NCBI GenBank assembly: GCA_002706335.1
Contig: PAKZ01000032.1
Location: forward strand, 97,466-161,465
DNA length: 64,000 bases
Direction of reading: 5' to 3'
Source of the DNA: Ahrensia sp.
GTDB lineage: Bacteria; Pseudomonadota; Alphaproteobacteria; Rhizobiales; Rhizobiaceae
Below, one piece after another: positions 2,605-42,600 of the stretch. The notes below the pieces were generated by a model. The model did not search any database. It worked only from the letters and a program-made list of their open reading frames with translations, and was not told where the DNA came from. Position 1 is the stretch's first letter, and each line of letters starts with the position of its first letter. Position numbers and translations under genes: made by a program.

Positions 2605-2659
2605 GCGCGTCTCCTCCCATATTCCTTGCCCTTTCGGGCCTCCCGATCTGAAGTCGATC

Positions 2660-2844: not shown

Positions 2845-2900
2845 CTTGCCACCCCAACGAAAACGGGGCCCGAAGGCCCCGTTTTCGTTGGGGTGGCAAG
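2845..2900 (-). terminator. 26-bp perfect stem-loop 10 nt downstream of hupC (terminator, attenuator or mRNA 3' stabiliser)
   Basis: cttgccaccccaacgaaaacggggcc / cgaa / ggccccgttttcgttggggtggcaag. On the transcribed minus strand the loop reads C(UUCG)G. There is no immediate U tract (CGGCGGUUUG follows). Confidence 0.6.
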
Positions 2901-2910
2901 ACAGGAAGGA

Positions 2911-3630: not shown

Positions 3631-3638
3631 GCCCTCCC

Positions 3639-23179: not shown

Positions 23180-23618
23180 CGAGATTTAGTCCTTAGCCCC
23201 GATTTATCGCCATCCGATCGCTATTTGCGCAAGCGATTTAACGTTGGAACACCTCCGAATCCTCCGGGCCGGCCGCCCGTTTTCTGCCACAAACGCGAAT
23301 TCCCGCGGGTCTGAAATTAGCCCGCACCGGGCTGTACGGGAAAAATATTACAGCGAAATTTTCCTCTTTCGAGGTTGCATGACGCGGCGTCGCCGCTAAC
23401 GTGCAAATGCCAAGATTTCAGGGGGTTGGGAGGCTGGAATTGAACCATCGCGTTTGCCGCGGACCGACGGGAATCCATTCGCCCGACACTCACTGTACGT
23501 TACTCCCTGAAAGAATTTGCGAGCGTCGCCCAATTTTTTCCACGCTTGCAGCGATGCTTTCTGCCATGTCCGTGTGGTTCGCTATGACCGGAACGCCGGC
23601 CAAAACTGAGGGTGTGGG

Positions 23619-25736
23619 ATGAAAAACAATTTTCTTCGCAAGCGCGGCGTCGTACTTGCCGCGAACATGGCGTTCGGCGCGTTGCTGGCGTTTCCAGCGC
23701 TCGCGCAAAACAATTATGCGCTCGTGGTCGCCGTATCGAAATACGACAACCTTGACGAAACCCTGTGGCTCGCCGGTCCGGTGAACGACGCGAAGCTGGT
23801 GCATGAATATTTGCTCGACGGCGCTCCGATAGACTTCACCGAAGACAGGATCACCCTGCTCGCCGACGGTATTGACGGCGCTACCGCCCCTACCAACGCC
23901 CACATCCACGAAGCGTTTGCCGCGCTCGCGGAAAAGGCGGAACCCGGCGATTTCGTCTTCCTGCATTTTTCCGGCCATGGCTCGCAGTCGCCGGCCCGCG
24001 TCGAAGGGCAGGAACAGGACGGACTAGACGAACTCTTCCTGCCGTCGGACATTTCCAATTGGGACATGAGTACCGGCACGATACCGAATGCTCTTGTCGA
24101 TGATGATCTGGGCCAGATGATCAACCGGATAATCGACAAGGGTGCCAATGTCTGGGCCGTGTTCGACAGTTGCCACTCCGGCACCGTCACTCGCGCCGGC
24201 CCATCCGGCGATCCTTTGGACATCGAAAAATCGCGCAAGCTCGGCCCCGCCACACTCGGCATCCCCGAAGACGTGATGGACGCGGTTGAGCCGGTCCGCA
24301 CCCGCTCTGGGTCGCCTGCGCCGGAAGCGGCGACGATAGAAACGTCCGGAAAGGGCGAAGGCCAGTTCGTCTATTTCTACGCGGCGCAGACCAATCAGAC
24401 GACGCCGGAGATGCGCCTGCCCCAAGGCGATCCTGACCGTGTCTCACACGGCCTGTTCACCTTCACCCTGTTCGAGGCGCTGAGCCAGAACCCGGCTCTG
24501 ACCTACCGACAGCTCGGCGAAGAAATCCTGCGCCGTTACACCGCAGGCTACCGTGTCCAGCCGACGCCGCTCTTCGAGGGCGCGCTCGACAACCCGGTCT
24601 TTGGAGCCGACATCGGCCATGGCGGCCGGGTCCAGCAGTGGCCGGTCAAGCAGGAAAGCGGCAAGCGCGTCTTCTCCGGCGGCAGACTTCACGGACTATC
24701 GGTCGGAGACGAACTGTCCCTCCTGCCCGGCCCCGCGGCAAGCGATGACGAAAAGATGGCGACGATCCGCGTGACCAGCACCGACGATTTCCAGTCGGAA
24801 TTCGAAATAGTCGACGGCGGCTTCGTGATGATAGAGCCGGGCTTCTATGCCCGCAAAGCCGCCGACGAGATGAGTTTCGGCGTGACCGTCGCCATGCCGG
24901 ACCCGAAAACAATTAGCGATGACCAGCGCGAAGCCGTCCAGTCGGTTATGGAAGGCCTTCAGGCCGCCGACCGCGAAGGCCTGAGGCTCGAACTGGTTCC
25001 GGCCGAGGACCGCGCCGACATCTATCTCCAGGTGGCCAACGGATCGCTTTGGCTGGTGCCGGCCGGAGCAGAGCGCATCGAGGAAGGCACCGACAAGACG
25101 ATCTCGATTTCCTATACGACCCGCGACAGCAGCGAGACCGTGAACATCCTTGCCGAGAGCCTTGCACGCATCGCCCGCGTCGCCAATCTGCTCAAGCTCG
25201 GGGATTCCTTTTCGAGCAGCGACGGCGGGCTGAACGTAACCTATTACATACAGTCTGCCGCAACCGGAGAGCGCACACCGGTGGCTCCGCCTGCTATCCC
25301 GCGGCTGGAACCGGGCGACGAGATGTATCTGGAAGCGAAGAACACATCCAACCGCCCGCTTGATCTCAACATCCTCTATGTCGGCGTCAGCTATTCGATC
25401 GACTTCATGTATAACGGGCGCATCAATCCCGGCGAGACGCTTCGGGACGGCCTGCTCGAAATCATCGAGGGTGAGTACGGACGCGAGAGGCTGATCAGCA
25501 TAGTCACGCCTGCCGAGCCGCAGACGGCGCTCGCCGATTTCTCATGGCTGGCCCCGCCGGCAATCGGGCGGACTCGTGCCGCCGGCGCCTCTCGCGGTGG
25601 ATTCCAGGATATGCTGGCCGAGGCGGGCTTCGGCGAGAAGACACGCGCGGCCCGGCGCAAGACAAAGGATGACGACGGCTCCGGCATCGCGCAGGTAGCC
25701 CTCGACATCCTGCCGCCAGGCTCGACCGCCGAGTAA
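23619..25736 (+). CDS. Exported caspase-like cysteine protease (peptidase C14 domain) with large C-terminal beta-rich region
   Basis: Signal peptide ...LLAFPALA/QN. Caspase-fold dyad FLHFSGHG (His120, 23976-23978) and VFDSCHSG (Cys185, 24171-24173). The C-terminal 400 aa is uncharacterised and resembles the accessory domains often appended to bacterial caspases. Confidence 0.85.
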   Translation: MKNNFLRKRGVVLAANMAFGALLAFPALAQNNYALVVAVSKYDNLDETLWLAGPVNDAKLVHEYLLDGAPIDFTEDRITLLADGIDGATAPTNAHIHEAFAALAEKAEPGDFVFLHFSGHGSQSPARVEGQEQDGLDELFLPSDISNWDMSTGTIPNALVDDDLGQMINRIIDKGANVWAVFDSCHSGTVTRAGPSGDPLDIEKSRKLGPATLGIPEDVMDAVEPVRTRSGSPAPEAATIETSGKGEGQFVYFYAAQTNQTTPEMRLPQGDPDRVSHGLFTFTLFEALSQNPALTYRQLGEEILRRYTAGYRVQPTPLFEGALDNPVFGADIGHGGRVQQWPVKQESGKRVFSGGRLHGLSVGDELSLLPGPAASDDEKMATIRVTSTDDFQSEFEIVDGGFVMIEPGFYARKAADEMSFGVTVAMPDPKTISDDQREAVQSVMEGLQAADREGLRLELVPAEDRADIYLQVANGSLWLVPAGAERIEEGTDKTISISYTTRDSSETVNILAESLARIARVANLLKLGDSFSSSDGGLNVTYYIQSAATGERTPVAPPAIPRLEPGDEMYLEAKNTSNRPLDLNILYVGVSYSIDFMYNGRINPGETLRDGLLEIIEGEYGRERLISIVTPAEPQTALADFSWLAPPAIGRTRAAGASRGGFQDMLAEAGFGEKTRAARRKTKDDDGSGIAQVALDILPPGSTAE

Positions 25737-25757
25737 GGCGTCCCGGAGGTTGATCTG

Positions 25758-28586
25758 ATGAAGACGACACTCGCATCAGCAATTGCGCTATTGGCCATCG
25801 CCCTGGCTGACCCTGCCCCGGCGCAGGAGACGGAGGGCAAAGCGCCGATAGACCAGACGCTCCTCAAATCCGCCGAGAGCGGCGATCCAAGCGCGCTTTA
25901 CGATCTCGGCTGGGCCTATCTAGAGCGCAAGGAAGTGGAGGCCGCATCGACCACGTTCCTCAAGGCAGCTGATGCATTCGAAGTCTCTACTGGAGAAGAC
26001 AGTCTCAAGTGGAAAGCCGAGAGTTTTTCCGCCCTCGGCTACGCTCATATGCAGCAAGGCGCCGACGGCTACGACCAGGCGGCCGACTATTACCGCCGCG
26101 CGGTCGAGACCTACGGTCTGACGGACGGCGAGGATATGGGCGGCCTGAAGCCAGCACTCTACAATCTCGGCTGGATATATAGGGCCAAGGGCGGCGCGGA
26201 GAATCTGGAATCAGCGCGCAAATATCTGCGCATGGCACTGGACCTTTACGCGAATGCAGAAGGTGACAATCTTAAATGGAAGGGTGCCGTATTCAGCATG
26301 CTGGGCGACGCACATCTTGACTCGGCCCACTTCACCGACGCGATGACGTCCTACGATTCCGCCATGTCTATCTATGCGCAGATTGGCAACATGCCCGCTC
26401 TTGCTGCCAGCCTGGAGAGCAAGGGCATGGCACTCCAGGGCCTGTCGAAGTACGAAGCGGCAATCGCGCTTTTCGGGCAGGCCCGCCAGATCCGTATCCG
26501 CGAATTTGGCGACACGAGCCGCGAGGTTGCCGACACCTGGCTCGACGAGGGCATCAGTCTTGAAGGGCTGCATCGCTACGATGAGGCGCTCGACGCTTAC
26601 ACCGAGGCGCTCCTGCGCTACACGAAGGCTCTCGGCCCCGACGCCGCCGAAATAGGATGGGCAACCAACAATATCGGTTGGGTGCATCGCCGCCTCGAAA
26701 ATTACGAAGTCTCGAAACGCTGGTTCCTGAAAGCGGAACCGATCATTGTCCGCCATGAGGGGCGCTATTCGCGCAACGCCGGCAAGGTCGCGATCAATAT
26801 CGGCATCATCGAGCACTATCTCGGCAACCAGGATTCGGCGATCCGCTGGACCATGAAGTCGATGCCTTACATCAAGGCCAACCACGAGATCACGCTGGAG
26901 GAACAACGCTGGGCCTTCGATACATTTGCCCGCGCCTTCCGCGCGAAGGGGGATCCGAAGCGCGCGATCGCCTTCGCCAAACTCGCGGTCAATGCGCAAC
27001 AATCCATTCGCTCGGCGAACAAGTCGCTGTCGGAAGGTGAAAGCAAGGAACTGAAGGACGAATGGCGGTGGCTCTACCAGCATCTCGCCGACATGCTGAT
27101 CGAGCAAGGCCGTTTCACCGAAGCGCAAGCCGTGCTCAATATGGAAAAAGAGCAGGAAGTGTTCGAATTCCTGCGCCGCGACGCCTCGGCCGACCTTCGC
27201 GACACACGCGCCCTGCTCAATGACGCAGAACAGGACGAGGAGGTCAAGATCGCCGCCCTTTCGGAATTTCCGCTCGCCGCGGCGCGCGAGCTCGATCAAC
27301 TCATCGGAAAGATCGAGCGCGACGAGGCGACCGATGAGGATATCGAGAAGATCGATGTCCTGCAGGCGAGCATTGACCGGGCGGCTGAGAATTTCGACCA
27401 GCAGGTCGACGCCTTCCTCGCCGATGTCGAGGAGGACCGCAAACAATCTTTCGAGAGCCAGTTCGATGCCGTTGGAAGCCAGCAGGCGATCCTCGAGGAA
27501 TTCGAGCAGAAGACGGCGATCCTGCAGGTCGCAGCGATCGACAAGGCGACGCATATCTTCGTCACGATGCCCAGTGTCACGCTGCACAAACAGTCCGACG
27601 TCTCGAAGGTCGAACTGTCGCGCATGACCTTCGATGCACTGGTCGCCATCGAGGCGCGCAGCGCCGACACGACCGAGAAGCTGAAGGCGCTTTATGACGT
27701 GGTTGTCAGACCCGTTTCACAAGACCTGAAGGAGGCGGGCGTAGAGGTTGTCATGCTCAATCTCGACGGCTTCCTCCGATATCTCCCCTTCGCGGCGCTT
27801 TATGACGGCGAGCATTACTTCGTCGAGGATTACGCGGTGGCGCTCTACACGCCCTCCGTGCCGACGCAGTTTCGCCGCGGCGACCGGCTTGCCGCAAAAA
27901 GCGCCGGCTTCGGCGTTACCGCCGCGCATCCCGGCTTCTCTCCGCTGCCCGGCGTGAAGCGCGAGATCGAGCAAATCTTCGCTGGCGAGGACAACAATGG
28001 CATACTTGAGGGCCCGGCCGAATTCGATGATGCTTTTTCGGAAAAGAGCCTGCGCCTGACCCTTCTGAAAAAGCCGGAAATCCTGCATATCGCCAGCCAT
28101 TTCAACCTGATGCCGGGCCAGATCGACAACTCGTTCCTTCTCCTCGGCGATGGCGCGCATCTTCCGCTTTCGGATATCCGCAACAAGCGGGCGCTCTCTT
28201 TCAAGGGCATCGACCTCGTGACCCTCTCTGCCTGCCAGACCGCCATGGGCGGCGGTGGCGACGGGTCAGAGATCGAAGGGTTCGGAACGACGGCGCAGAT
28301 GAGCGGGGCCTCCGCAGTCATGGCGTCGCTGTGGCCTGTCGCCGATGAAGCGACAGCGAAGCTGATGGAGGATTTCTACGACAACATGATGCGCGGCGGC
28401 ATGTCGAAAGCTGACGCGCTGCGCGCCGCCCAAATAACCATGATGCGCGGCAGCGAAACACTCGCAGCCTCCGAAGGGGGCGAACGCGCCGCAATGTCGA
28501 AACAAAAACGCAAGGCCGACGCGTCAACGGGATTTTCCCATCCCTATTTCTGGTCGTCTTTCATACTGATCGGAAACTGGCTGTGA
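25758..28586 (+). CDS. Exported TPR-repeat CHAT-domain protease
   Basis: Signal peptide MKTTLASAIALLAIALADPAPA/Q. Multiple TPR-like repeats (YDLGWAYL, YNLGWIY, ALSFSMLGDA...). C-terminal CHAT motifs ILHIASHF and LVTLSACQTA, then SLWPVADEAT and HPYFWSSFILIGNW. GGAGG ribosome-binding site. 21 nt after the caspase gene. Confidence 0.85.
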   Translation: MKTTLASAIALLAIALADPAPAQETEGKAPIDQTLLKSAESGDPSALYDLGWAYLERKEVEAASTTFLKAADAFEVSTGEDSLKWKAESFSALGYAHMQQGADGYDQAADYYRRAVETYGLTDGEDMGGLKPALYNLGWIYRAKGGAENLESARKYLRMALDLYANAEGDNLKWKGAVFSMLGDAHLDSAHFTDAMTSYDSAMSIYAQIGNMPALAASLESKGMALQGLSKYEAAIALFGQARQIRIREFGDTSREVADTWLDEGISLEGLHRYDEALDAYTEALLRYTKALGPDAAEIGWATNNIGWVHRRLENYEVSKRWFLKAEPIIVRHEGRYSRNAGKVAINIGIIEHYLGNQDSAIRWTMKSMPYIKANHEITLEEQRWAFDTFARAFRAKGDPKRAIAFAKLAVNAQQSIRSANKSLSEGESKELKDEWRWLYQHLADMLIEQGRFTEAQAVLNMEKEQEVFEFLRRDASADLRDTRALLNDAEQDEEVKIAALSEFPLAAARELDQLIGKIERDEATDEDIEKIDVLQASIDRAAENFDQQVDAFLADVEEDRKQSFESQFDAVGSQQAILEEFEQKTAILQVAAIDKATHIFVTMPSVTLHKQSDVSKVELSRMTFDALVAIEARSADTTEKLKALYDVVVRPVSQDLKEAGVEVVMLNLDGFLRYLPFAALYDGEHYFVEDYAVALYTPSVPTQFRRGDRLAAKSAGFGVTAAHPGFSPLPGVKREIEQIFAGEDNNGILEGPAEFDDAFSEKSLRLTLLKKPEILHIASHFNLMPGQIDNSFLLLGDGAHLPLSDIRNKRALSFKGIDLVTLSACQTAMGGGGDGSEIEGFGTTAQMSGASAVMASLWPVADEATAKLMEDFYDNMMRGGMSKADALRAAQITMMRGSETLAASEGGERAAMSKQKRKADASTGFSHPYFWSSFILIGNWL

Positions 28587-28641
28587 CAGTTTCCGGATAC
28601 CCGCTAGAGGCAACACAATCGCAACACTGAAAGGACTGATT

Positions 28642-29691
28642 ATGAGGAAAATACTGAGCAAGATCGCCGGCGCCGCGGCGATCGCCCTTGTTTTGCAGGC
28701 GATGGCGTCGGCGGAACCGATGTGGGAGAAAAAGGAAGGGTCGCCGGACATGCCGTTCAACTTCGCGGCGAGCCCGGAAAAGGCCGCGATGCTGGAAGGC
28801 AGCTCCGAAGAAGAACGCTCTCGCGTCCTGAACGGCAAGATCGCCGCAGACGGTGCCTGGCCGTGGCAGGTCGCCCTTATGCGCGTCGACGTCGAACGCG
28901 ATCTTCTCTCGCAATTCTGCGGCGGCTCGATGATCCAGAACGACTGGGTACTGACGGCGGCCCACTGCGTGGTCGAGCAGCGCCAGGACGGCTACTACAT
29001 CATCGATCCGGCCAAGACCCGCATCATGGTCGGGACGAACCGCATTTCCAATGAGGGCGATTTCGTTGAAGTTCAGCAAATCATCGTCAACGAAAACTAC
29101 GATCCCAACGGTTTCGACAACGACATCGCGTTGATCAAGCTTGCACGCGTGCCCAACGCGAATTTCAAGACGATCACGATTCCCACGGGCGAATATGCCG
29201 ATATCCTCGAAAAGCCGAACACCGAAACGATCGTGACCGGCTGGGGTCGAACTGAAGCTGGCACGCCGTCGCGCGAACTCCGCGAGGGCCGTATCGAGAT
29301 TATCGATCGCAATATCTGCAACGCGGCCCTTCTCGCAGGCCCGATGAAGGCGGCGGCCGGCTACTTCCAGCAGGCGGCCGATGCGCTTGCCCTGTCCGGC
29401 AACGACGCCAACACGCTCTGGGATGAGATGCTGGACAGGGTTCCGGTGCCGCTCACCGAGAACATGATCTGTTCGGGCACGCCGGAAGGCCCGCGCGGCG
29501 CATGCGACGGCGACAGCGGCGGACCGCTTGTCATCGGCGTCGGCGAAGGCAAATACATACAGGCGGGTATCGTCAGCTGGGGCCTCGCCTCGACAGATGG
29601 TGTCGGTTGCAATCGCGACGCCAAATTCTCCGCCTATACCCGCACCGGCAACTATGCCGACTGGGTTCTCACGAAGCTCGGCTACAAGTAA
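28642..29691 (+). CDS. Exported chymotrypsin-fold (S1A) serine protease, apparent zymogen
   Basis: Signal peptide ...QAMASA/E. Triad LTAAHC (His108), DNDIALIKL (Asp161), GDSGGP (Ser292). SR/VLNGKIAADGAWPWQVAL resembles the R/IVGG activation junction. Gly occupies the position equivalent to trypsin Asp189. Confidence 0.9.
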   Translation: MRKILSKIAGAAAIALVLQAMASAEPMWEKKEGSPDMPFNFAASPEKAAMLEGSSEEERSRVLNGKIAADGAWPWQVALMRVDVERDLLSQFCGGSMIQNDWVLTAAHCVVEQRQDGYYIIDPAKTRIMVGTNRISNEGDFVEVQQIIVNENYDPNGFDNDIALIKLARVPNANFKTITIPTGEYADILEKPNTETIVTGWGRTEAGTPSRELREGRIEIIDRNICNAALLAGPMKAAAGYFQQAADALALSGNDANTLWDEMLDRVPVPLTENMICSGTPEGPRGACDGDSGGPLVIGVGEGKYIQAGIVSWGLASTDGVGCNRDAKFSAYTRTGNYADWVLTKLGYK

Positions 29692-29717
29692 GCTGGCTCT
29701 TCGCGAAACCGGTTTTG

Positions 29718-29746
29718 AAGGCGGCGGATTTTCCGCCGCTTTTTTT
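29718..29746 (+). terminator. Rho-independent terminator after the S1 protease gene
   Basis: aaggcggcgga-ttt-tccgccgc followed by TTTTTTT. Confidence 0.8.
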
Positions 29747-29749
29747 ACG

Positions 29750-31195
29750 TCAGTCCGGCGAAATACGGCGTTTGCCCTTGGACGAAATCCCCTCATAGGA
29801 GCGCAGGAAATTGCGGAAGACCGGGTGCTGGCGCAACGCCAGGCGACCTGCCTCAATCGACAGATCAACCTGCTCGCCCGGCAGTTTGAGCCGCGTGGGA
29901 ACCTGGTTCAGTTTCGCCTCCATCTGGCTATCGAGCTGGTCGAAGCGCAGTTCGGCGACATAGAGTTTCAGGTTGCGGCAATTCCATTTGCGCGGATCGC
30001 CGCCGAATTTCCTGACCTCCGCACTGCTCAGCGAGCAGCGATAGGCAATCAGATCCTGCTGCCAGCTTTCCATCGCGGCCTTGAACGCGTCGAAGCCCTC
30101 GCGCGTCGCCGACGCCATTGCCGTATCCGCGATCGCCGACACAAGTTCGAGACCGCCCGGACCGGCGACCTCGTTCGCCCAGTCGCCATCGAGTTCGCGG
30201 CCCGCATTCGAGACGATGAAAACCATGCGTTCCAGCGCCACCGCCTCTTCCTCGCTGAAAGGAGCGTGTCGGGTCTGCGCGCGACCCCGCGCGATCGAGA
30301 TACCGGTCAGGCCGAAATTGTCGGTCACTGCGCCATCGAGCAGCTTGACGTAGCGCATCTTCTCCGGATCCCGGTAATTGCGCAGCGCCCGCGCATAGGC
30401 GCGCAGCGAGGCCGAAGCCTCAGTATTGTAGGCCGCCGTGGTCAGCCATGCCGGCGGCTCGTAACTGCAGCGCGGCCCGTAGGCTTCGAGAACGATCGGC
30501 GAGAAGACGATGGGCACGGCCGCCGACGCCGCGACAGCCTCGGCGACCGGAAGCCTGTTCAGGTCGCTGCAAAGGGCGCGGAAAGTCTCCGGCTCGAAGG
30601 TGAACGGCGTCCGGTTGTAGATGTCCGACGCGTTGATCCAGGTGGTGATCTGTTTGTTACGATAGAGGTCTGCGAACGTCGCGCCCTTGAACAGGTTCTC
30701 GTCCAGCCAGCGCCCGAACCCTTCCCGGCTGTTGACGCCGCCGCTCGCCGCACGAAGCAGATTGACCGGATCGAGCTTCGAAGTGCGCATATATTCCTCG
30801 CCGTTCCTGACGAGGAAATGCTGTTTGAAGTCGGAAAAACCGCGCGCTCCCTTGAGACCGAAATAGGCTGCGGTCACCGATCCGCCGGATACTCCGGAAA
30901 GGAACCGTATTTCATCGAAAGCCGATATACCTTTCTTTCCGGGGATCGCGGTCTCCTGCATTTCGCTCAATATTCCGTAGGCGAAGGCCGCGGCGCGCGT
31001 GCCGCCGCCTGAAAAAGCCAGCGCCACAAAATCGCTGTCAGCGCTCATGCCGTCGTCTTGCGCCGTCAACCCCGGCGCTTGCTCGACCTGGATTTCCGAG
31101 AAAGAGTTCAGCGTATCATTGACCGAGACACAGCCTGCCAGCATGGCAGCTGCGGTCAAGCCGGCAATGCGGCGCAAAATCGTCGATCGCGACAT
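29750..31195 (-). CDS. Patatin-like phospholipase, lipoprotein
   Basis: Lipobox AAAMLAGC. Oxyanion FSGGGTRAAAF. Nucleophile elbow GVSGG (Ser codon 30887-30889). Asp motif DGAVTDNFG. Start taken at the ATG 31193-31195 (the track ORF starts 10 codons earlier). Confidence 0.85.
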   Translation of the reverse strand: MSRSTILRRIAGLTAAAMLAGCVSVNDTLNSFSEIQVEQAPGLTAQDDGMSADSDFVALAFSGGGTRAAAFAYGILSEMQETAIPGKKGISAFDEIRFLSGVSGGSVTAAYFGLKGARGFSDFKQHFLVRNGEEYMRTSKLDPVNLLRAASGGVNSREGFGRWLDENLFKGATFADLYRNKQITTWINASDIYNRTPFTFEPETFRALCSDLNRLPVAEAVAASAAVPIVFSPIVLEAYGPRCSYEPPAWLTTAAYNTEASASLRAYARALRNYRDPEKMRYVKLLDGAVTDNFGLTGISIARGRAQTRHAPFSEEEAVALERMVFIVSNAGRELDGDWANEVAGPGGLELVSAIADTAMASATREGFDAFKAAMESWQQDLIAYRCSLSSAEVRKFGGDPRKWNCRNLKLYVAELRFDQLDSQMEAKLNQVPTRLKLPGEQVDLSIEAGRLALRQHPVFRNFLRSYEGISSKGKRRISPD

Positions 31196-31339: not shown

Positions 31340-32011
31340 ATGAAAATTTCCTTGCGCGCGGTTGGCGTTTCCGCGTTGATCCTTGCGAGCGCCGTCGCAA
31401 CAACGAGCTACGGCCAGTCGGCCGCGGAAGACCCGCAGGCGGCCGCACTGAAACTGATCCGGATGTCGCGTACATTACACGACCGGGCAATCGAGACCTC
31501 CGATCCAGTCCTCATGCTTTCAGCGGCAAGGTTGCGCAAGGATTCCGGCATGAAAGCTGGCGCGCTTGGCACGCTGGAAAATAGCGGCGAAGACGCTGGC
31601 GACATTTCGGGGGAGACATTCAGCTGGGAACGCTGGCTTGAAGAAGCCGTGCGGCTTTCGGGCGGCAGCGATGTGATCGCCGGGCTCGCCACCGATATCC
31701 GGACATCCGGATCCAAGGGCCTCGCAGGCCAGGCAGTCTATACCGAAGGCCGCCTCGCGGCGCATTCCAGCCATAGATACAGCGATCTGAATTTCGTCGG
31801 CGGCGAGTTCGCCGAAGTCTATTCCGAAGGTCTCGGCAAGGCGGATATCGATCTGTTCGTGCGCGACTCGCGCGGCGCGATCGTCTGCTCACAGACGGAT
31901 TCGAGCAATATCAACCAATGCGGCTGGACGCCGGGCGCGACCGGTCCCTTCGAGGTCACGCTGGAAAACAAGAGCGATTTCGCAGACACGTACGCGCTGA
32001 CCACAAACTGA
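31340..32011 (+). CDS. Small secreted protein: helical N-domain plus PPC-like (pre-peptidase C-terminal type) beta-sandwich
   Basis: Signal peptide. The N-domain is paralogous to ORF 35755-36147. The C-terminal pattern YSDLNFVGGEFAEVY...GKADIDLFVRDSRGAIVCSQ...GPFEVTLEN...YALT fits the DxDLYxxD-type PPC signature. Confidence 0.65.
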   Translation: MKISLRAVGVSALILASAVATTSYGQSAAEDPQAAALKLIRMSRTLHDRAIETSDPVLMLSAARLRKDSGMKAGALGTLENSGEDAGDISGETFSWERWLEEAVRLSGGSDVIAGLATDIRTSGSKGLAGQAVYTEGRLAAHSSHRYSDLNFVGGEFAEVYSEGLGKADIDLFVRDSRGAIVCSQTDSSNINQCGWTPGATGPFEVTLENKSDFADTYALTTN

Positions 32012-32519: not shown

Positions 32520-35500
32520 CTAGTTCGATCCGACAACGACAAACGGCGCCCAGACAGAGGGATGCGAACCGCCCGGCAAATCGGGATCCTCGAGCAAGGA
32601 TAGCATCGAGCGCCGCAGGCTTTCGGCATGGCCGATGATTGCGTCCTTCGCCCGCGCCGCTATCGCGCCTTGCGTCAGCAAGGCAGCGGCATCGTCTCGC
32701 ACCGGCCAGTGCGACACAAGCAGCGAACGCGCGCCGGCATAAAGGAAGGCGCTGGCGAGCCCCGACAGCCCCTCGCCGCCCGGCGTCCCGTCCGGCGCCG
32801 CGGTGTTGCAAGCTGACAGGATCACCCAGTCGGCAGCCAGATCGAGTTCCGCAGCTTCCGAGGCCGTGAGCAATCCGTCGTCGAGATCGCTTGGGGTTTG
32901 CGGGGCCGAAAAGGCAAGCGCCGGCTCGGCAAGGCCGTCGAGATCGCCGGCGACCAACCCATGCGTGGCGAAGGTGACGATGGCAGCTTTCGAGACAAGC
33001 TGCGAATTCTTCACCGCCTCCTCGGTCGCCTGCCCACCAAAGCGAATCGCATCGTCGGAAACGCCGAGCAGCTTCGCCAGTCCCTCGACCTCGCGACGCG
33101 TTCCCGGCAGCGGCGGCAATGACCGCACCGCGCGCGTATCCGCAACTCCGCGGTTGAAGTAGCCTGCGATCTGCACCGGCTGCTCCGTCTCCTCGCTACC
33201 AGAGAAATCCGGATCGCCGAACGCAGCGAAGACCGCCTCGGCCTGGCGCGGATTGGAAAAGCGGCGCAGCGTCTGCAGGCTCATCGCAGAGGGTAGCGCC
33301 GCGAAAGCATGATGACGAACGAGCCAGTCGGTGTCGCGAAGCGCCAGAGGATCGGAATCCGCCCCGTTGGGCGGCGAAGCGACCAGCACGGACAAAGGCA
33401 GGCCGGCGAGCGCCCCTTCCTTAACGACGAGCACCGTGCCGCGCCCGTCCAGCACGTCAGCGATCGGGGCGATCAGCTTCCCATAGAGATCATACGCCGT
33501 CGCCCTGTCGAATGTCGGGCCGCTGACGGCCTGCGGTTGCTTCAGGCGCTTGGCGGCGCGGGCAGCCCCAAGCGGATCGAGATCCTTGCGTAGCGCCCGG
33601 ATCTTCCCGTCGAGATCCTGTTCCGACAGCGGCGTCCGCGCCCATCTCGCGTCGTCGCGGTTCATCGCGAACACATAGGTCTCGTCCGATGTCGTCACCG
33701 GCATTAGCAGAGCCTCGTCCGGCTCGAGCAGGGCCTGGATATCGGCCACCGAAAGCACGTCGGGTTGTGTCAGCCGGGCGTAATCGGGAAAACGCGCCCC
33801 GATCTCGTCGTCGAGCGTCCTGATTTCCGCGGTGATCGTATCGATGCGGCCCTGCAGACTGACCGAAACCTCATTCGAGGCCCCGGAGGTGCCGACAGCG
33901 TTCAGGAACTGCCTGTCCGCCGCCCGCCAGTCATTGACCAGATCCTGTTTTCGCCGCGCCAAGTCGGCGATTTCGCCCTCACCGGCCGCAAATCGCGCCG
34001 CGACCCGACGGACCACTTGCGCCGCCGTCGATGACTGCGCCCATTGCGCAGAACGGAAGGCTTCGTCGATCCCTGTCACAGGGTCGGTCTCCCATAGCGC
34101 GGCGACCATCGCCATCACCTGCCGGCGCTTTTCACGCAGTCCCGCCGCGCCGATCGTCTCGTCCGCGCCAAGCCGCGCTGTATTGAGCTTGTATAGATCG
34201 AGCGCCTTGCGGGCGACATCACGCGCAGGCTCCGCCTCCCCGGCGCTTAGTTGCAACCAAGCAAGATTGAAAAGCGACGTAACAACATCAGAATGCCCTG
34301 TCGGCCGGTTCTTCTCGAAGATTACACTTGCCTCGCGCGAAACGCCTATCGCTTCTTGGGAACGTCCCAGGAGAAAATAGGCGGTAGCGAGGTTTGACTC
34401 CGCCCGGGCGAGCCGCAGGATATCGCCGGTCGCGCGCTGGATGGCCACCGCTTTCTCCAGCGAGGCCACTGCATATTCGGTCTGGCCCGCGCGCAACAAT
34501 GTCAGACCGATATTGGAGAAAGAAACCCCGATCTCCGCGTGCGGCGACTGGAAAATGGCAAGGCGAATATCGAGTGCCTTGCGCTGCGTATCGAAGGCCT
34601 CCTGAAACAGAAACTGCCCGCGATAGACCTCGCCAAGCCCATCGAAAATCGTGGCGGCGAGCGGCGTTTGTCCGAGCCCTGCTTCCGACAGGACCCGTGC
34701 GCCGTCTTCGAACAGGCCCTCGGCATCCGCCAAACGTCCTTGTTGAGACAGGAGCGCGCCGAGATTGTTGAGGAGCGTCGCATCGTCCTGCGCGGTCCAG
34801 TCCTTTGTTCGCGGCAGGCCCGCCGCCTGCGATAGCGCCTCCCGGTAAAAGGTCTCCGCATTGGCCGTTTCACCACCCAGCGACGCGATCCGGCCGGCGA
34901 CATTGAGCACCTGCGCTCGATCGTAGGCGGAGAGATCCGGCAACATCGGGGTCAACTGGCCGAGCAACTGTTTGGCCGAGCCGAGATCGCCGTTCTCAGC
35001 CTGCAGCGCCGCAAGCGTCGCCGCATTCCTGATCAGATCGGTGCGGTCTACATCAGAACCGTTCAGCGTTCGCTCGACCGCTTTGGCCGCCATCTCCTCG
35101 GCCTCCGCCAGTCGACCGCTATCCTTCAGGATGGAGGCCAGCAATTGCCAGGACTGCACAAGCGCATTGTCAAGCGCGCTATTGGCCTCGCGCATCGCCA
35201 GCGCATCGCGCGCCATGGGTTCCGCCTCGGCGATCCGGCCCTGTCGGGCCACCACGGCGGCCAGATTATGGAGCGCAGAAGCCACAGAGAGCGGCGACGG
35301 CGTCGCCGCCTGGCGCTGCATCTCCAGCACCTCGCGAAACAGGCGTTCGGCCTCCGCAAAATTGCCGGAATCGACAAAGGCGCGCCCTTGCATCGTCAGG
35401 TCGAAGGTCTTTCTTATCAGATCGTCTTCGGAAAGTGTTTGGGCACTCGCGGTCAGCCAAGGAGCACCGACCAGACAGAACAACAGCAGGGCCGCCCGCG

Positions 35501-35540
35501 CCCCCTTCGCGCATACGAAAACCAAAGGCACCTCCCCCAA
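32520..35540 (-). CDS. Exported TPR-repeat CHAT-domain protease (second copy)
   Basis: Leader ...LLLFCLVGAPWLTASA/Q. At least 8 TPR-like repeats. CHAT motifs IVTFATHG and WVILSACNTA, then LLVSHWPVRDDAA and HPSVWAPFVVVGSN. Non-ATG start (TTG/GTG between 35525 and 35540), so the exact start is uncertain. Confidence 0.8.
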   Translation of the reverse strand: MGEVPLVFVCAKGARAALLLFCLVGAPWLTASAQTLSEDDLIRKTFDLTMQGRAFVDSGNFAEAERLFREVLEMQRQAATPSPLSVASALHNLAAVVARQGRIAEAEPMARDALAMREANSALDNALVQSWQLLASILKDSGRLAEAEEMAAKAVERTLNGSDVDRTDLIRNAATLAALQAENGDLGSAKQLLGQLTPMLPDLSAYDRAQVLNVAGRIASLGGETANAETFYREALSQAAGLPRTKDWTAQDDATLLNNLGALLSQQGRLADAEGLFEDGARVLSEAGLGQTPLAATIFDGLGEVYRGQFLFQEAFDTQRKALDIRLAIFQSPHAEIGVSFSNIGLTLLRAGQTEYAVASLEKAVAIQRATGDILRLARAESNLATAYFLLGRSQEAIGVSREASVIFEKNRPTGHSDVVTSLFNLAWLQLSAGEAEPARDVARKALDLYKLNTARLGADETIGAAGLREKRRQVMAMVAALWETDPVTGIDEAFRSAQWAQSSTAAQVVRRVAARFAAGEGEIADLARRKQDLVNDWRAADRQFLNAVGTSGASNEVSVSLQGRIDTITAEIRTLDDEIGARFPDYARLTQPDVLSVADIQALLEPDEALLMPVTTSDETYVFAMNRDDARWARTPLSEQDLDGKIRALRKDLDPLGAARAAKRLKQPQAVSGPTFDRATAYDLYGKLIAPIADVLDGRGTVLVVKEGALAGLPLSVLVASPPNGADSDPLALRDTDWLVRHHAFAALPSAMSLQTLRRFSNPRQAEAVFAAFGDPDFSGSEETEQPVQIAGYFNRGVADTRAVRSLPPLPGTRREVEGLAKLLGVSDDAIRFGGQATEEAVKNSQLVSKAAIVTFATHGLVAGDLDGLAEPALAFSAPQTPSDLDDGLLTASEAAELDLAADWVILSACNTAAPDGTPGGEGLSGLASAFLYAGARSLLVSHWPVRDDAAALLTQGAIAARAKDAIIGHAESLRRSMLSLLEDPDLPGGSHPSVWAPFVVVGSN

Positions 35541-35754: not shown

Positions 35755-36147
35755 ATGATCTCAGCAAGGAATATCGCATTGGCAGCCTGCATCGTCGGCA
35801 TGATGGCCCCACAGGCTTTTGCCGCCGACGAAATGTCGGAAGGCGCGAAACAGCAGATGGAGCTTTCCAATCAGCTGATCGCCCTCGGCCGCGAACGCAA
35901 GGATGCCATTCTCGTCCTCGCCGGTGCGCATCTGCGCAACAACATCCCCAATGATCCGATCGGCGAGGCCGGCGACATTCCGGACAAGGCCGATCTGATG
36001 GAAGAGGCCAAGATGCTCGCCGGAGACCGGGACGATCTGAAAGGCATCGCCGACGACATCGACGCTGCGAGTTCGCGCGGCTGCTACAACTGGAACGGCG
36101 GCACCGGATCCTTCTCCTGCCCGCCCGGCTCGCAATTCGCGAAGTGA
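35755..36147 (+). CDS. Small secreted protein, paralogue of the N-domain of ORF 31340-32011
   Basis: Signal peptide ...MMAPQAFA/A. GAGGAGGA ribosome-binding site. Shared blocks: LIALGRERKDAILVLAGAHLR vs LIRMSRTLHDRAIETSDPVLMLSAARLR, and EEAKMLAGDRDDLKGIADDIDAASSRG vs EEAVRLSGGSDVIAGLATDIRTSGSKG. Confidence 0.65.
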   Translation: MISARNIALAACIVGMMAPQAFAADEMSEGAKQQMELSNQLIALGRERKDAILVLAGAHLRNNIPNDPIGEAGDIPDKADLMEEAKMLAGDRDDLKGIADDIDAASSRGCYNWNGGTGSFSCPPGSQFAK

Positions 36148-37151: not shown

Positions 37152-38138
37152 CTAGCCGAAGGCCAATCGGAAGGCGAACAGGCCGATTGGCACCATGATC
37201 AGACCCAGCGGGATGATGATAATCGCCAGGAAATCGGCGAACCGCCAGCGCACGACATAGAGCTTGCCGTCCGGCGACTGCATCGCGCGGACCGTCTCGC
37301 CCGGAAGGTAGCGGGATTCGCGCAACTTCTCCGCCTCGGGGATCGAGATCCAGCCCCAGGTGATGCCCTCGAGAGGAACGCCGCCATTGTCCACGCGGTC
37401 GGAGGAGGTCACCATCACATCCACATAGGCGGCGACCGTACCGTTGCCGACCTGATGACGCCGAACCGTGGACGATGCCACCGTCATGTCAGATCGCGGC
37501 CAGGCGATCGAATAGGGTGGCGGGTCGCCGAAGGTCCAGAAGAAATAGGCCAGCACCAGCGGGATGCCAGTGAAGGCGAGCCCGAACAAAAACGCGATCG
37601 GTCTGAACGAAAGCCCGGCATTCTTGCGCGCGGCTTCGCCGCCCTGGGCCTTCCAACGCTTCTCATGGAAGGGCCTGAACACAATAAACGCCAGGACGAC
37701 GAGAATAATCGTCAGCGCAACGGCGGGGATTATCATGAAGGGGCGCCTGAACGACGGATAGGCAACGTCCCCGCCCGGCGATACGCGGACAGAAACCGTC
37801 AGCCCCACCGGCCATTGAGCGATAGCGGCGTCCCTGTCGCCAACCGCGTCCTCGACGATCAGACGTATCGGCCTGCGCTGGTTGGCGCCGCCCATCACCT
37901 CGATGATCGGGTCGGTACGCTGGACGATACCCAGCCCGTCATAGACCTCGCGCGTTTCATGCGTCGCAACGATGGCGTCCGCTCTCTCCCAGAACATGGA
38001 GATTGCGGGCGGTTGGCCGATAAGCCAAACGGCCAGCCAAATGATCAGCGCGATGCCGCCAAAGAGCACTCTTCCTATCAGTTGCACGGTCCGGCCTCGG
38101 CGAAAACGGTCGGGCGGCTCAAGACGCGACACCCGCAA
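37152..38138 (-). CDS. Membrane protein with two tandem DUF3592-like modules (TM, beta domain, TM, twice)
   Basis: Internal duplication: WPVGLTVSVRVSPGGDVAYP and YLPGETVRAMQSPDGKLYVV, each flanked by TM helices. The annotated start is TTG. The true start may be an internal GTG (for example 38087). Confidence 0.5.
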   Translation of the reverse strand: MRVSRLEPPDRFRRGRTVQLIGRVLFGGIALIIWLAVWLIGQPPAISMFWERADAIVATHETREVYDGLGIVQRTDPIIEVMGGANQRRPIRLIVEDAVGDRDAAIAQWPVGLTVSVRVSPGGDVAYPSFRRPFMIIPAVALTIILVVLAFIVFRPFHEKRWKAQGGEAARKNAGLSFRPIAFLFGLAFTGIPLVLAYFFWTFGDPPPYSIAWPRSDMTVASSTVRRHQVGNGTVAAYVDVMVTSSDRVDNGGVPLEGITWGWISIPEAEKLRESRYLPGETVRAMQSPDGKLYVVRWRFADFLAIIIIPLGLIMVPIGLFAFRLAFG

Positions 38139-39617: not shown

Positions 39618-42600
39618 TCACTGCAGGGTGAACTGGCTATATTGCGGCTCGCTGCGCACGGATGGCATCTGACGGCCCCCGGAGAGTTCCAGCACATTGG
39701 CGCTGACATATCGGAACAGCTCGCTGAGCTCCACCGCATCGTCGCCATTGCTGTCCGCCTTCCTTGATCGCAACCCGTCGAGAAGCACATGGGTGAAGAG
39801 ACCGTTGGCGACATCGGGAGTTTCGAAGGCGAACTGGAAGCCGCCGGAGGCGGAGATGATATTCGCTCCGGAGCGCGATTTCGTGTCGAGGAAATTCGCC
39901 CTCAGGACCTCGTAACTGTCCTCCAGCGAAACCGTGTTCTTCCTGCGAGCCAACGGTACCGCGCCACGCGCATCGCGCGCGACCACCGCCCCGGTCGTGA
40001 AGGCGACCCGCTTGTCGGTCTTCAGGCTGGGGTCGATGACGCCGGAATGGCAGGCGTCGATCAGCATGACGCGGTGAAGCGAGTTCGTATCGTCGAAAAT
40101 CGATTCGAGCCTTCGAAACGGGATCGCACTGTTCGCGAGGTCGTCCAGATCCGTTTCGTGACTTCCCAGATAGTAGCCGTAGTCGTCGTCGAGCAGGCCA
40201 TGGCCGGCGAAGAAGAAGAGCGTCTTGTCCTGCGGCCGGGCCTGCGCGAAAAACCGCCGCGCCTCGTCGACCAGATCGGCGGTCGACTCGCCATCGGTGG
40301 CGACATGCACGACCGCATCGGCGGTGCCGCCGAAATAGGCGCCGATATCGCGCGCATCCTTGGCCGCATAGGTCAGATCGAGCGCATCGTCGCTGTAATC
40401 CGAGACGCCGACGGCAAACACATAGAGTTTGGGCGGAGCGATGCCCTCCGGCGGCGCGCGGCGAATGGTCGTCCTGAACAGTGTCCGCTGCACGCCCCGC
40501 GGATCGGTTTCGGTGAACCGGATCCGGTTCAATCCCGGCTCCAGCGGAACATGCAGGGCTTGCCCGTCCGATGCTGCGGAAATGCCGAGCCTTTCCAGAA
40601 CGATCCCGTTATTGCGCAATTCCACCGTCCGCAGGCCCGCCTGCCCGTCGGAAGACAAGGTGAATTCCGCGCTGTCCGATCCGGTGATCGCATCGGTCTC
40701 CTGCACGACCGTCAACTCCGCCGCCGCGGAGAGCGTCATGGGCGACGGCCTGCCGCTGCCGGTTTCGAGAAGCCTCTTTTCGTGCAGCCGGGCCAGCAGG
40801 AGTTCGCGGTCGGGCGTGATCAGCCCTGCCCGCGACAGGGCAATATCGGGCCGGTTGCGAAAAATATCGGCCTCGAAGAGATCGACGCTGCCGCCCCACG
40901 TATCGATGAAGCTCAGCCGCCGGAGCCGGTTCTTGTCGCCCGCATAATAGCCGTCCGAGGTCAGGACCACACTGCCCTCGAAATTCTTCGAGCGTGCGCC
41001 GTAGAGAGGGTCGAAGATCGCGGCGACCATCTGGTCGTTGGCCGGCATGCCAAAGGCGATGTCGTATAACCGGTCGCCATAGACCGGCGTGGCATAGTCT
41101 AGGTCGATGTCGGCGGTTTCCCATATCCGGATCACGCCCTCACGCCCGCGCGTGACGAGACCGCTCCCGTTCCAGGACAACGACCCGACCGCGGCGTCAT
41201 GCGCCTGCAAGGTCTGGCGGACGGCCCCGGATTGCAGATCCTCCAGGACCACGCTGCCGCTATCCGTTCCGATCCCCAGCATCCGGCCCGAGGCATCGAA
41301 TTCCATCGCTGTGACATTCCCCTGCCAGCCGGGGAAAATCTCGGCGGTGCGCTTGCCATCTGCGAGGTCCACGATGAAGACCAGCGAGACATTCTCCGAC
41401 CACCGTCCATTGTCCGGCGCCCGCATGTTCGCCACCGCGGCGTAACGCCCGTCCGGGCTGATGGCGAGCGGCGTATCGCTGGTGAAGTTCCAGCGGTCGG
41501 GCGCATGCAGCGGAAAGCTCCTTTCCAACGTCACCGCATCACCATCGATACGACCGATCGCGAGGCTGACGGTCTGGAGAGACCCTTCCGGATCGGTATT
41601 CCGGATGAAGATCGGGCGGCCTTGCCACGGCCCTCGCCCGGCTTTCACATCGGTGATTTCCGCCGGAACGATATCCGCCGAAAGCTTGCGGAGCGCGACG
41701 CCTTCGCCATCCAGAACCACGAGTCCGTCGCTTGCGAGAAGAAACACCTGTCCATCGTCCACGGCGAGCGCACGCGACAGCGGCAGTGAAGGTGCTTCGA
41801 AATCGCCGAGATGCCGCCACCCGCGCCCTGTCATCCGCGCCAGATGTGTCCGGTCGCCGTCCGACCCGCTGACCGTGTAGGCCAGAAGGATGTCCCGTCC
41901 CTGCCACCGGATATCGGCATCGATCAGACGAGCATCGGCGGCGTTCACGCCCGCAAGCGCGAGAAGGTCCTGATATTCGGTCCTGTTCGTCTCGGGCTGT
42001 TCGGCGATCAATATCCCGTTGGCGGTGACGGACCAGAGACGCTTGTCGGCAACCGCCCGCGCCAGGATGGCGGAGACATCCTCATAGCCCGTCTCCGCAA
42101 CCAGATCGCCGAGAACGGAACGCGTCTTGAGATCGACCATGAAGACGGAGTCGCCGCCCGCAAGGACGAATGCCAGCGCGGCATCGTCCGCCACGATCAG
42201 CTTTTTCGCACCGTCGATCGCGCGATCGAACGCTTCGACTTGCGGATCGCCCGCTCCCAGCCCGTAAACGCCCGCATCGGTGACCAGACTTGCACTGTCT
42301 TTGGAAAATGCGAAGGCCGTCCCTTCGACCGTGCGCCGCAGGCCCGATTCCAGGGTCTCGATAGTGATCCGCCCGCTCGGACGGCAGTCCGGGGTGGCAT
42401 CCGGCTCAGCCCATGCCAGCATAGCGCCGTCGGGGGAGAGACGCAGGCTTTGCGAGCTCACCTCTAGGCACTGCGTTGAGCCGAGTTTCTTTTCGACCAA
42501 CCGGTCCCCGAGCGAAATCCGGCCGTCCTTGCAGTATGCCGACAGGAAGTCCGTTGTGCCGCACCGATCCGGGAAATCCAGCGCATCGACCCTAAGGACA

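Follow-up and report, generated by a model that had tools for sequence, protein, structure and literature searches.

The three-gene protease unit

The window analyzed here is a 64,000-nucleotide stretch of DNA from Ahrensia sp. (GenBank assembly GCA_002706335.1, contig PAKZ01000032.1, positions 97,466 to 161,465 of the forward strand). It contains a compact unit of three protease genes on the + strand, which encode a caspase-like protease (C14a), a protein that combines TPR repeats with a CHAT protease domain (TPR-CHAT) and a trypsin-fold serine protease (S1). The unit is followed by a terminator:

23619-25736, + strand: C14a, Peptidase_C14 protease, 705 amino acids (open reading frame list and Pfam)
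25758-28586, + strand: TPR-CHAT protease, 942 amino acids (open reading frame list and Pfam)
28642-29691, + strand: S1 trypsin-fold protease, 349 amino acids (open reading frame list and Pfam)
29718-29746, + strand: rho-independent terminator closing the three-gene unit (terminator scan and folding)

The initial annotation had described these genes as members of three protease families separated by spacers of 21 and 55 nucleotides. Its coordinates are exact and Pfam agrees with the family assignments, while an independent gene caller, run on the identical public contig, made identical calls for all three open reading frames (ORFs). The spacers lie at 25737-25757 (C14a/TPR-CHAT) and 28587-28641 (TPR-CHAT/S1). 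Purine-rich Shine-Dalgarno-like motifs (GAGGG, GGAGG and AAGGA) are found 8-13 nucleotides upstream of the three ATG codons, in line with the ribosome-binding site that had been assigned to each gene. The claim of a single clear terminator after the third gene also holds. This element, GCGGCGGA-UUU-UCCGCCGC followed by U7 at 29720-29746, forms a GC-rich hairpin with a folding energy of -21.2 kcal/mol (z = -3.2 against shuffled sequences) and lies 3 nucleotides from the stop codon of a convergent patatin gene. The 15 other terminator-like matches between 22 and 32 kb are all weak, and the total of 16 compares with 11.0 +/- 3.3 expected by chance. The genes thus share a strand and a conserved adjacency, are separated by short spacers and have no terminator between them, and judging from these features the three genes most likely form one transcription unit. 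The same C14-CHAT-S1 order is found in Oricola and Oceaniradius genomes (L001-L003) at 53-82% protein identity. Since this order recurs there, and since the adjacency of C14 and S1 extends far more widely, the layout is not a chance juxtaposition.

Comparisons throughout draw on about 160 related loci, including 80 genome and 79 metagenomic loci (L numbers denote individual loci). The genome loci were collected by a C14 alignment pattern scan and belong mostly to marine and freshwater Rhodobacterales (e.g., Shimia, Thalassovita, Tabrizicola, Cypionkella) and Hyphomicrobiales (e.g., Oricola, Oceaniradius and Ahrensia-like organisms). Their ORFs were clustered de novo together with those of the window (81 loci). 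As calls based on G+C content at third codon positions were poor on low-G+C loci (e.g., L008, L010, L014 and L078), the clusters were cross-checked by tblastn in the 54 loci with full 10-kb flanks.

Two features precede the unit:

23180-23618, no strand: divergent intergenic region, 439 nucleotides, between the membrane-protein gene and the C14 gene
22229-23179, - strand: multi-pass membrane protein, 316 amino acids, no Pfam match; conserved C14a/CHAT neighbor in the Oricola, L009-L012 and L086 lineages

About 440 base pairs of non-coding DNA had been noted here as room for dedicated regulation. The gap is real, and an alignment with two Oricola genomes reveals non-coding blocks common to these relatives, but the region is divergent and shared with the membrane-protein gene rather than a private leader of the protease unit. 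One conserved block (about 23375-23410) is an inverted TTGCA...TGCAA motif and another lies at about 23505-23560. The region also holds, at 23265-23293 of the + strand, a GC hairpin CGGGCCGGCCGCCCG plus the T-run TTTTCTGCCACAAA, the 3' part of which is conserved in the Oricola genomes. Possible roles for it are those of an attenuator, of a binding site for a protein or of a terminator behind a small transcript that is not annotated. An Rfam scan of 22-37 kb at E <= 1 gave no match, and hence no known riboswitch or leader in the 439-nucleotide region. A sigma-70 promoter scan returned 0 sites against 3.0 expected, the consensus being uninformative for an alphaproteobacterium.

Export of the products

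Each of the three proteins begins with a predicted signal peptide that has a basic n-region, a hydrophobic core and an AxA-type site, with cleavage expected between ...FPALA and QNNY in C14a, between ...DPAPA and QETE in TPR-CHAT and between ...AMASA and EPMW in S1. These features are conserved in the C14, CHAT and S1 family alignments, and a crude test (hydrophobicity plus a small-x-small site) detected signal peptides in 108 of 119 C14, 62 of 70 CHAT and 114 of 119 S1 homologs. Neighboring products appear to be exported as well: the patatin carries a conserved lipobox, the small protein O223 a signal peptide, and N-terminal signal or membrane segments are present in ORF155, a second TPR-CHAT protein, a WD40-C14 protein and a Sel1-CHAT protein. 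Given conserved signal peptides on all three proteases, any cascade among them would be extracytoplasmic, in the periplasm or at the cell surface, and not a cytosolic, apoptosis-like one. As to the exact compartment, the periplasm would be one candidate and the surface or vesicles another.

C14a, a metacaspase-like protease

In C14a, Pfam Peptidase_C14 (PF00656) matches residues 33-300 (E = 1.2e-17). A signal peptide (residues 1-29, 23619-23705) precedes a caspase fold at about residues 30-330 (23706-24608), and immunoglobulin-like (Ig-like) beta-sandwich domains occupy about residues 337-700 (24627-25718). The catalytic dyad consists of His120 (23976-23978) and Cys185 (24171-24173) and is invariant in 64 homologs and in both C14 clades, termed C14a and C14b. 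Between the p20- and p10-type parts lies a low-confidence linker (residues 187-245), within which Arg206 and Arg229 are invariant. The motifs GPVND (GxxND), HFSGHG (HxSGHG), DGLDELFLPSD (DGxDE) and FDSCHSGT align with those of the metacaspases Yca1 and AtMC4, and FDSCHSGT is identical in all three according to the matches with sequences from the Protein Data Bank (PDB).

The AlphaFold2 model (mean predicted local distance difference test, pLDDT, 79.7) points in the same direction. Foldseek retrieved AtMC9 (2.5e-15) as well as AtMC4, GSU0716 and Yca1, and for the C-terminal part MALT1 caspase-Ig3 and MSP-like domains; a low-stringency Pfam scan of the C-terminal 370 amino acids gave nothing credible. 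By its sequence and predicted fold, C14a would therefore belong with the metacaspases and orthocaspases (C14B), and its residues are those of a catalytically competent enzyme.

Metacaspases cleave after Arg or Lys, commonly in a Ca2+-dependent manner, and Asp95 and Asp211 line the pocket of TbMCA2 (PMC4357240). The corresponding acidic S1 pocket is found in C14a as Asp57, in GPVND (GCIND in Yca1 and AtMC4), and Asp183, the mapping onto TbMCA2 numbering being derived from motif spacing. Asp57, His120, Asp183 and Cys185 are invariant in the alignment of both C14 clades. Like the metacaspases, C14a is expected to be Arg/Lys-specific and is probably Ca2+-dependent; the sequence feature that bears on this is the conserved acidic motif DGLDE...D.

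The S1 zymogen and its link to C14

Pfam Trypsin (PF00089) covers residues 64-342 of S1 (E = 9e-48). The protein consists of a signal peptide (residues 1-24, 28642-28713), a propeptide of about 37 residues (25-61, 28714-28824) with a conserved sPFxFA...K motif that is characteristic of the family, and a protease domain (residues 62-349), the predicted activation cleavage falling between Arg61 and Val62 (28822-28827). Signal peptide, propeptide and motif are common to every S1 homolog. The triad His108, Asp161 and Ser292 is present, as are GDSGGP, Asp194 and the disulfide cysteines. Across 56 homologs, the P1 residue is always basic (Lys in 33, Arg in 23) and is followed by Val in 56 of 56, by Ile, Leu or Val, by Gly or Asn, and at P4' by Gly in all 56. 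In the alignment, Val62-Leu-Asn-Gly coincides with the first residues of the mature acrosin, kallikrein, tryptase and matriptase chains. The invariant basic residue in front of V-[ILV]-[GN]-G, aligned to the starts of mature chains, thus identifies the site as the counterpart of Arg15-Ile16 in chymotrypsinogen. The earlier proposal that the serine protease is a zymogen is well borne out by this anatomy, and at the sequence level S1 has the features of a chymotrypsin-fold S1A zymogen.

The position equivalent to residue 189 is Gly in the window and Thr in most homologs, and in none of the 56 is it Asp. Because Asp189 is missing from the pocket, self-activation at a basic residue is unlikely. 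At the same time, in 49 of the 56 loci a C14 gene is followed directly downstream by S1 on the same strand, whichever C14 clade is involved: the preceding gene is C14b in loci with two paralogs and C14a in those with a single C14. This adjacency persists although the rest of the cluster is reshuffled. The adjacency, the invariant Lys/Arg at P1, an S1 enzyme without Asp189 and a C14 enzyme with an acidic metacaspase-type pocket together suggest that C14 activates the S1 zymogen by removing its propeptide, and we consider this the best-supported mechanistic step in the system. Alphaproteobacterial fusion proteins that join trypsin and p20 domains exist (PMC6426788) and support a coupling of the two domain types.

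The TPR-CHAT protein

The TPR-CHAT protein contains multiple TPRs and a CHAT domain (Pfam, residues 640-940, E = 2.3e-58). Behind a signal peptide (residues 1-22, 25758-25823), a TPR superhelix spans about residues 33-464, a helical linker residues 466-580 and the CHAT domain residues 586-942 (27513-28583). The His781 (28098-28100)/Cys826 (28233-28235) dyad is invariant across 45 homologs in the family alignment. The AlphaFold2 model (pLDDT 83.4) shows the long superhelix, the helical linker and the CHAT domain, so that the architecture of a C-terminal CHAT domain with a His-Cys dyad after a TPR superhelix is complete. Among the Foldseek matches, which range from 1e-11 to 1e-9, DdvA (8rw5) is the best (1e-11), followed by Csx29 (7y9x, 1.7e-11) and separase.

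The distribution of TPR-CHAT differs from that of the C14-S1 pair. Only 17 of the 80 genome loci have one or other of two TPR-CHAT families within 10 kb of C14a, and in the 56-locus adjacency analysis a TPR-CHAT gene between C14 and S1 was scored only in the window and two Oricola genomes; the Oceaniradius locus (L003) has the same order, with the contig ending inside S1. In Shimia abyssi, Mesobacterium pallidum and Vannielia litorea (L082-L084), a lone ortholog (about 50% identity) separates purS from purQ of the purine-biosynthesis cluster, and that of Oryzicola is found among housekeeping genes. An obligate membership of TPR-CHAT in the cluster was considered and rejected on account of these orthologs. 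TPR-CHAT is a recurrent but optional partner of C14a, and a function as sensor is plausible by analogy. The purS-purQ position is conserved in the three Rhodobacterales genera and is an odd one for an exported protease.

The initial annotation had read the three genes as a cascade from sensor through initiator to executioner. What stands of this is a tight, conserved and co-oriented unit with one terminator. The site of action would be extracytoplasmic, the conserved pair is C14-S1, and the insertion of TPR-CHAT into this pair is confined to the Oricola/Oceaniradius lineage.

The wider module

The three-gene unit is real, but it proved to be part of a larger module. In the window, the genes for a patatin, O223 and a second TPR-CHAT protein (CHAT2) adjoin it, while elsewhere HtrA and a two-component system or a sigma factor of the extracytoplasmic function (ECF) type are added. 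The families recur as follows:

S1 protease: 56/81 loci by clustering, 51/54 by tblastn
O223: 63/81 by clustering, 50/54 by tblastn
Patatin: 50/81 by clustering, 41/54 by tblastn (within 10 kb of C14a)
HAMP histidine kinase: 58/81 by clustering
OmpR-type regulator: 51/81 by clustering
HtrA/DegP-like protease: 49/81 by clustering

In the typical Rhodobacterales block, the genes for S1, C14b, patatin, histidine kinase, regulator and HtrA point one way and are followed by those for O223 and C14a, which point the other way. Hyphomicrobiales loci contain the same families in other orders. The same families in shuffled order indicate functional linkage and not inherited synteny, and comparative genomics thus argues for the functional coupling that had been proposed in place of independent digestive enzymes. 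The C14a of about 700 amino acids is the hub of the module, with TPR-CHAT, S1, patatin, O223, HtrA and an envelope signaling device as recurrent partners. The two-component system of the related loci is a generic one that did not reach the cut-offs of the CusS-, CreC- and BaeS-like NCBIfam models, and no cluster protein had an equivalog-level match in NCBIfam. Histidine kinase, regulator and HtrA genes were sought across the 64 kb of the window and none was found; the Oricola relatives are without them too.

Downstream of the unit, the window contains the following members of the module:

29750-31195, - strand: patatin-like phospholipase lipoprotein, 481 amino acids (Pfam; lipobox LAGC; GGGxR, GxSxG and DGA motifs)
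31340-32011, + strand: O223, small secreted protein (signal peptide, helical hairpin, C-terminal beta domain, two invariant Cys; PPC-like)
32520-35525 or 32520-35540, - strand: CHAT2, second exported TPR-CHAT protein, about 1001-1006 amino acids, signal peptide (Pfam)
35755-36147, + strand: short paralog of O223 (N-terminal domain), 130 amino acids

O223 is the most faithful partner of C14a and lies directly upstream of it in Rhodobacterales. It has no Pfam match, its profile matched only designed helical repeats among PDB sequences, and one O223 homolog has a weak match to a PPC domain. The family (about 205-250 amino acids) is large: a library of 1.84 billion proteins holds 818 of its representative clusters at E <= 1e-3 and, at the stricter threshold of E <= 1e-10, 195. 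A low-stringency Pfam search of O223, ORF155, the 328-residue protein described below and the 316-residue membrane protein returned nothing credible.

The CHAT2 family is found beside the C14/S1 cluster in several loci from Rhizobiales and Rhodobacterales (L007, L008, L016, L021, L027, L033, L036, L055), and Oricola sp. L001 has no CHAT2 at the equivalent position. In Mariprofundus sp. KV (L078, 8721-15568), genes for an ECF sigma factor, a protein with one transmembrane segment, C14a and TPR-CHAT follow one another. A metagenomic locus (L104, 4427-18235) has on one strand C14a, TPR-CHAT, an ECF sigma factor, a 196-residue protein, an HtrA-like protease, an O223-like protein and a second TPR-CHAT, and TPR-CHAT is linked to C14a in another metagenomic locus as well (L124). 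Among the 79 metagenomic loci with TPR-CHAT relatives, the recovered flanks held an ECF sigma homolog in 15 and a C14 homolog in 10. The versions linked to ECF sigma/anti-sigma genes (L078, L104) suggest a coupling of periplasmic proteases to sigma factors well beyond Myxococcus DdvA/DdvS.

A 328-residue protein (37152-38138, - strand) with one N-terminal transmembrane segment and no Pfam match belongs to a family that is encoded directly after S1 in several loci of the Hyphomicrobiales type (L004, L006, L009, L011 and L050), and upstream of the cluster in Oricola L001 and L002.

Host and remainder of the window

The three proteins are found in identical form in NCBI, JGI, ENA, Logan and Tara assemblies, and their clusters at 90% identity are labeled Oricola sp. 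(Hyphomicrobiales) with domain-level names. Public annotations go no further than 'caspase family protein', 'CHAT domain-containing protein' and 'serine protease'. A search of the full-text literature, whose coverage is incomplete and which is no proof of absence, returned no description of a C14/CHAT/S1 cluster.

A second exported caspase/CHAT set of three genes lies at 39618-49400 on the - strand:

39618-44081, - strand: WD40 protein with C-terminal Peptidase_C14, 1487 amino acids
44053-44736, - strand: signal-peptide protein with PG_binding_1, 227 amino acids
44733-49400, - strand: Sel1-repeat CHAT protein, 1555 amino acids

Their frames overlap by 29 and 4 nucleotides, which suggests translational coupling. 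The rest of the window is ordinary chromosome, with hup hydrogenase genes, TRAP and ABC transporters, aminotransferases and a polysaccharide cluster. A tRNA scan of the window found none, and there is therefore no tRNA-bounded island. Between 50000 and 64000, the G+C content falls to 0.56-0.59, compared with about 0.61-0.64 elsewhere. The genes of this region encode polysaccharide synthesis proteins, an asparagine synthase, an AMP-binding protein, an NAD synthase and a GT4 glycosyltransferase (GT4-conflict match), and two large ORFs (59309-61747 and 61882-62889) have no Pfam match; the region may be a horizontally acquired surface-polysaccharide island. At the other end (302-6044, - strand), a [NiFe] uptake-hydrogenase cluster comprises HupH-like, HycI maturation protease, cytochrome b and large-subunit genes. 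In the 801-residue ORF listed for the large subunit, the start lies some 250 codons upstream of the domain, probably as a result of an overcalled start or an absorbed small-subunit frame.

Comparison with known systems

Metacaspases (Yca1, AtMC4/AtMC9, TbMCA2) are the best matches of C14a in both sequence and fold. They have in common with it the caspase fold, the His/Cys dyad, FDSCHSGT, the acidic motifs and a p20-linker-p10-like layout. C14a differs in its predicted Sec-dependent export, in about 370 additional C-terminal residues of Ig-like character (compare MALT1 caspase-Ig3) and in its pairing with an S1 zymogen. For the latter, the reference is provided by chymotrypsinogen and trypsinogen, with which it shares the triad, Asp194, the disulfide cysteines and cleavage at a basic site that exposes an N-terminus of the (I/V)xGG type. 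In contrast to these S1A zymogens, the S1 protein is bacterial, has its own sPFxFA...K propeptide motif and carries Thr or Gly at residue 189. Trypsin-like and p20 domains are physically linked in the trypsin-p20(QC)-DUF4384 pseudo-orthocaspases of Alphaproteobacteria (Klemencic et al. 2019). There, the domains are fused and p20 is degenerate, whereas the proteins of the window are separate and the dyad is intact.

In location, the closest known system is DdvA of Myxococcus xanthus (PDB 8rw5/8rot). Both are extracytoplasmic TPR-CHAT proteins, and relatives of the module described here adjoin ECF sigma genes. DdvA, however, is membrane-anchored and has a cytoplasmic zinc anti-sigma domain with DdvS as partner sigma factor. 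The TPR-CHAT of the window has only a cleavable signal peptide and none of these DdvA-specific features, and no sigma factor was detected among the ORFs scanned in 20-50 kb. Craspase (Cas7-11 with Csx29) and separase share the TPR-CHAT architecture and the dyad but are cytoplasmic or nuclear and are controlled by an RNA-guided complex or securin, while the window is without Cas7-11.

The closest system in terms of components is the SAVED-CHAT to PCaspase cascade associated with type III-B CRISPR/CBASS in Haliangium ochraceum, in which a CHAT and a caspase-like protein are encoded together and one activates the other. That cascade is cytoplasmic, is triggered by cyclic triadenylate (cA3) through SAVED and includes neither an S1 zymogen nor signal peptides. 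No SAVED or Cas domains were found by Pfam and PADLOC in the three proteins and their neighbors, which sets the unit apart from both Craspase and SAVED-CHAT; the neighbors of the window's TPR-CHAT are other proteases and not CRISPR or CBASS genes.

The closest functional analogue of the proposed step from C14 to S1 is the staphylococcal cascade. Aureolysin, SspA and SspB are exported zymogens of different catalytic classes that are activated in sequence, and the sspABC operon holds part of the pathway (PMC3454333). The enzymes belong to M4, S1B/V8 and C47, act extracellularly in a Gram-positive organism and include neither a clan-CD enzyme nor a TPR sensor. That cascade has been demonstrated biochemically, whereas the one in the window is proposed from sequence.

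Proposed mechanism and alternatives

The structure of the genes, their conserved linkage, the signals for export and the anatomy of the zymogen are established directly, as are the catalytic residues. On this basis, the window is best explained as the Oricola-lineage version of a conserved extracytoplasmic module, in which TPR-CHAT would be co-transcribed between C14 and S1. We lean towards an exported limited-proteolysis system, with three Sec-exported and competent endopeptidases, one transcription unit and an activation of pro-S1 by C14 in the envelope, and hold this reading with slightly better than even confidence. We infer the order of cleavage, as well as the Ca2+ dependence, as follows. 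Once exported, C14 would remove the S1 propeptide of about 37 residues by cutting after the invariant Lys/Arg (Arg61). The freed Val62-Leu-Asn-Gly N-terminus would then activate the chymotrypsin-fold enzyme, and active S1, probably in concert with the patatin lipoprotein, would provide the broad-acting output. TPR-CHAT, by analogy with DdvA, Craspase and separase, may play an accessory part, as a ligand-gated sensor or clan-CD protease that provides input to the C14 step or modulates it, and O223 might serve as a chaperone, an inhibitor or a substrate of C14.

Several points weigh against this limited-proteolysis system. The missing Asp189 is also compatible with an unusual basic specificity of S1 or with activation by HtrA or another protease. 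In genomes with two paralogs, S1 follows C14b and not the clade of the window's C14a, which makes the acting paralog ambiguous, and the P1 preference of C14 is deduced from family motifs. The two-component system, the ECF sigma factor and HtrA of other loci are missing from the window and from its Oricola relatives. In most genomes the C14-S1 pair does without TPR-CHAT, which stands alone in Rhodobacterales and may therefore have an unrelated role. Finally, the signal-peptide calls come from sequence features and a crude script.

Four other explanations deserve consideration. In the first, which moves the cascade of the initial annotation out of the cytoplasm and gives the wiring proposed above a specific purpose, the unit is a periplasmic surveillance or programmed-lysis cascade. 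TPR-CHAT would sense an envelope-borne signal (for example a phage, a predator or damage) and activate C14, which would activate S1 and the patatin, and these would destroy the envelope or the invader. TPR-CHAT comes closest in fold to periplasmic DdvA, itself a TPR-CHAT protein for which phage sensing has been proposed (PMC11506125), relatives of the module are accompanied by ECF sigma/anti-sigma pairs or by two-component systems plus HtrA, a patatin and a broad protease are typical bacterial defense effectors, and CHAT-to-caspase cascades are known from type III-B CRISPR/CBASS systems. Nevertheless, PADLOC recovered no known defense system or defense genes, giving only a domain-level 'caspase' match, weak LmuA/Avs trypsin-domain matches and weak patatin matches. 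Moreover, the 942-residue CHAT family resembles a vertically inherited core gene in Rhodobacterales (the purS/purQ position), and the module is chromosomal and widely conserved, unlike patchy defense islands. We regard surveillance as a doubtful explanation.

The second alternative sees in the products secreted hydrolases that are co-regulated but independent, each maturing by itself, and that serve nutrition or an attack on algal or animal hosts. All of them, a lipase included, are indeed exported hydrolases, the host is a marine heterotroph found in Tara and other marine metagenomes, and S1 resembles the secreted proteases of animals. This would leave unexplained the strict adjacency of C14 and S1 amid shuffling clusters and an invariant basic P1 in front of a protease whose pocket lacks Asp189. 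Caspase-fold and CHAT enzymes perform limited proteolysis, and those encoded here carry large TPR and Ig-like regulatory domains; in addition, a Pfam scan of the island ORFs revealed no secretion-system genes. Independent hydrolases are unlikely in our view, to much the same degree as surveillance.

A third, somewhat less probable explanation is envelope housekeeping, in which the maturation or turnover of periplasmic and outer-membrane proteins falls to the proteases and lipid remodeling to the patatin, under an envelope-stress regulon. It would account for the HtrA/DegP-like protease and the OmpR-type two-component system that are linked in most genomes, for the core-like genomic position of the CHAT ortholog and for the peptidoglycan-binding protein encoded in the island. 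The restriction to certain taxa, mainly some marine and freshwater Rhodobacterales and Hyphomicrobiales, speaks against it, and the paralogous expansions in the window's island (three CHAT, two C14) suggest a specialized role.

Very improbable, finally, is a cascade in the cytoplasm that resembles apoptosis or serves abortive infection, after the manner of SAVED-CHAT/PCaspase or NLR-effector systems: the combination of caspase-like, CHAT and trypsin-like proteins is typical of conflict systems and C14 matches the PADLOC 'caspase' model, but the signal peptides are conserved on all three proteins, and Pfam and PADLOC found no SAVED, STAND/NACHT, CRISPR or CBASS components among the neighboring ORFs.

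Outlook

To our knowledge, bacterial caspase and metacaspase homologs number in the thousands, and for nearly all of them neither substrate nor role is known. In Alphaproteobacteria alone, a survey found 3,826 (PMC6426788). The invariant Lys/Arg activation site of S1 fits the specificity of metacaspases and, combined with an adjacency in 49 of 56 loci, provides a concrete, testable protease-substrate pair for a large family of exported metacaspase-like enzymes. The periplasmic TPR-CHAT proteins, moreover, are widened from the single characterized case of DdvA to a broad family that recurs beside C14, HtrA and ECF sigma genes, which is evidence of a tie to envelope signaling.

Should a role in envelope surveillance prove true, caspase-type cascades would not be limited to the cytoplasm. 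A bolder scenario, which we offer tentatively and think improbable on present evidence, is an all-extracytoplasmic caspase-family cascade in which a periplasmic TPR-CHAT sensor would gate C14 as the initiator and C14 would activate S1 and the patatin. It would be wired to envelope signaling through a two-component system or an ECF sigma factor, together with HtrA, and marine Alphaproteobacteria and related lineages would use it for innate immunity at the envelope or for programmed lysis. If true, it would be the first defined physiological pathway, with a substrate, for the bacterial homologs of metacaspases.

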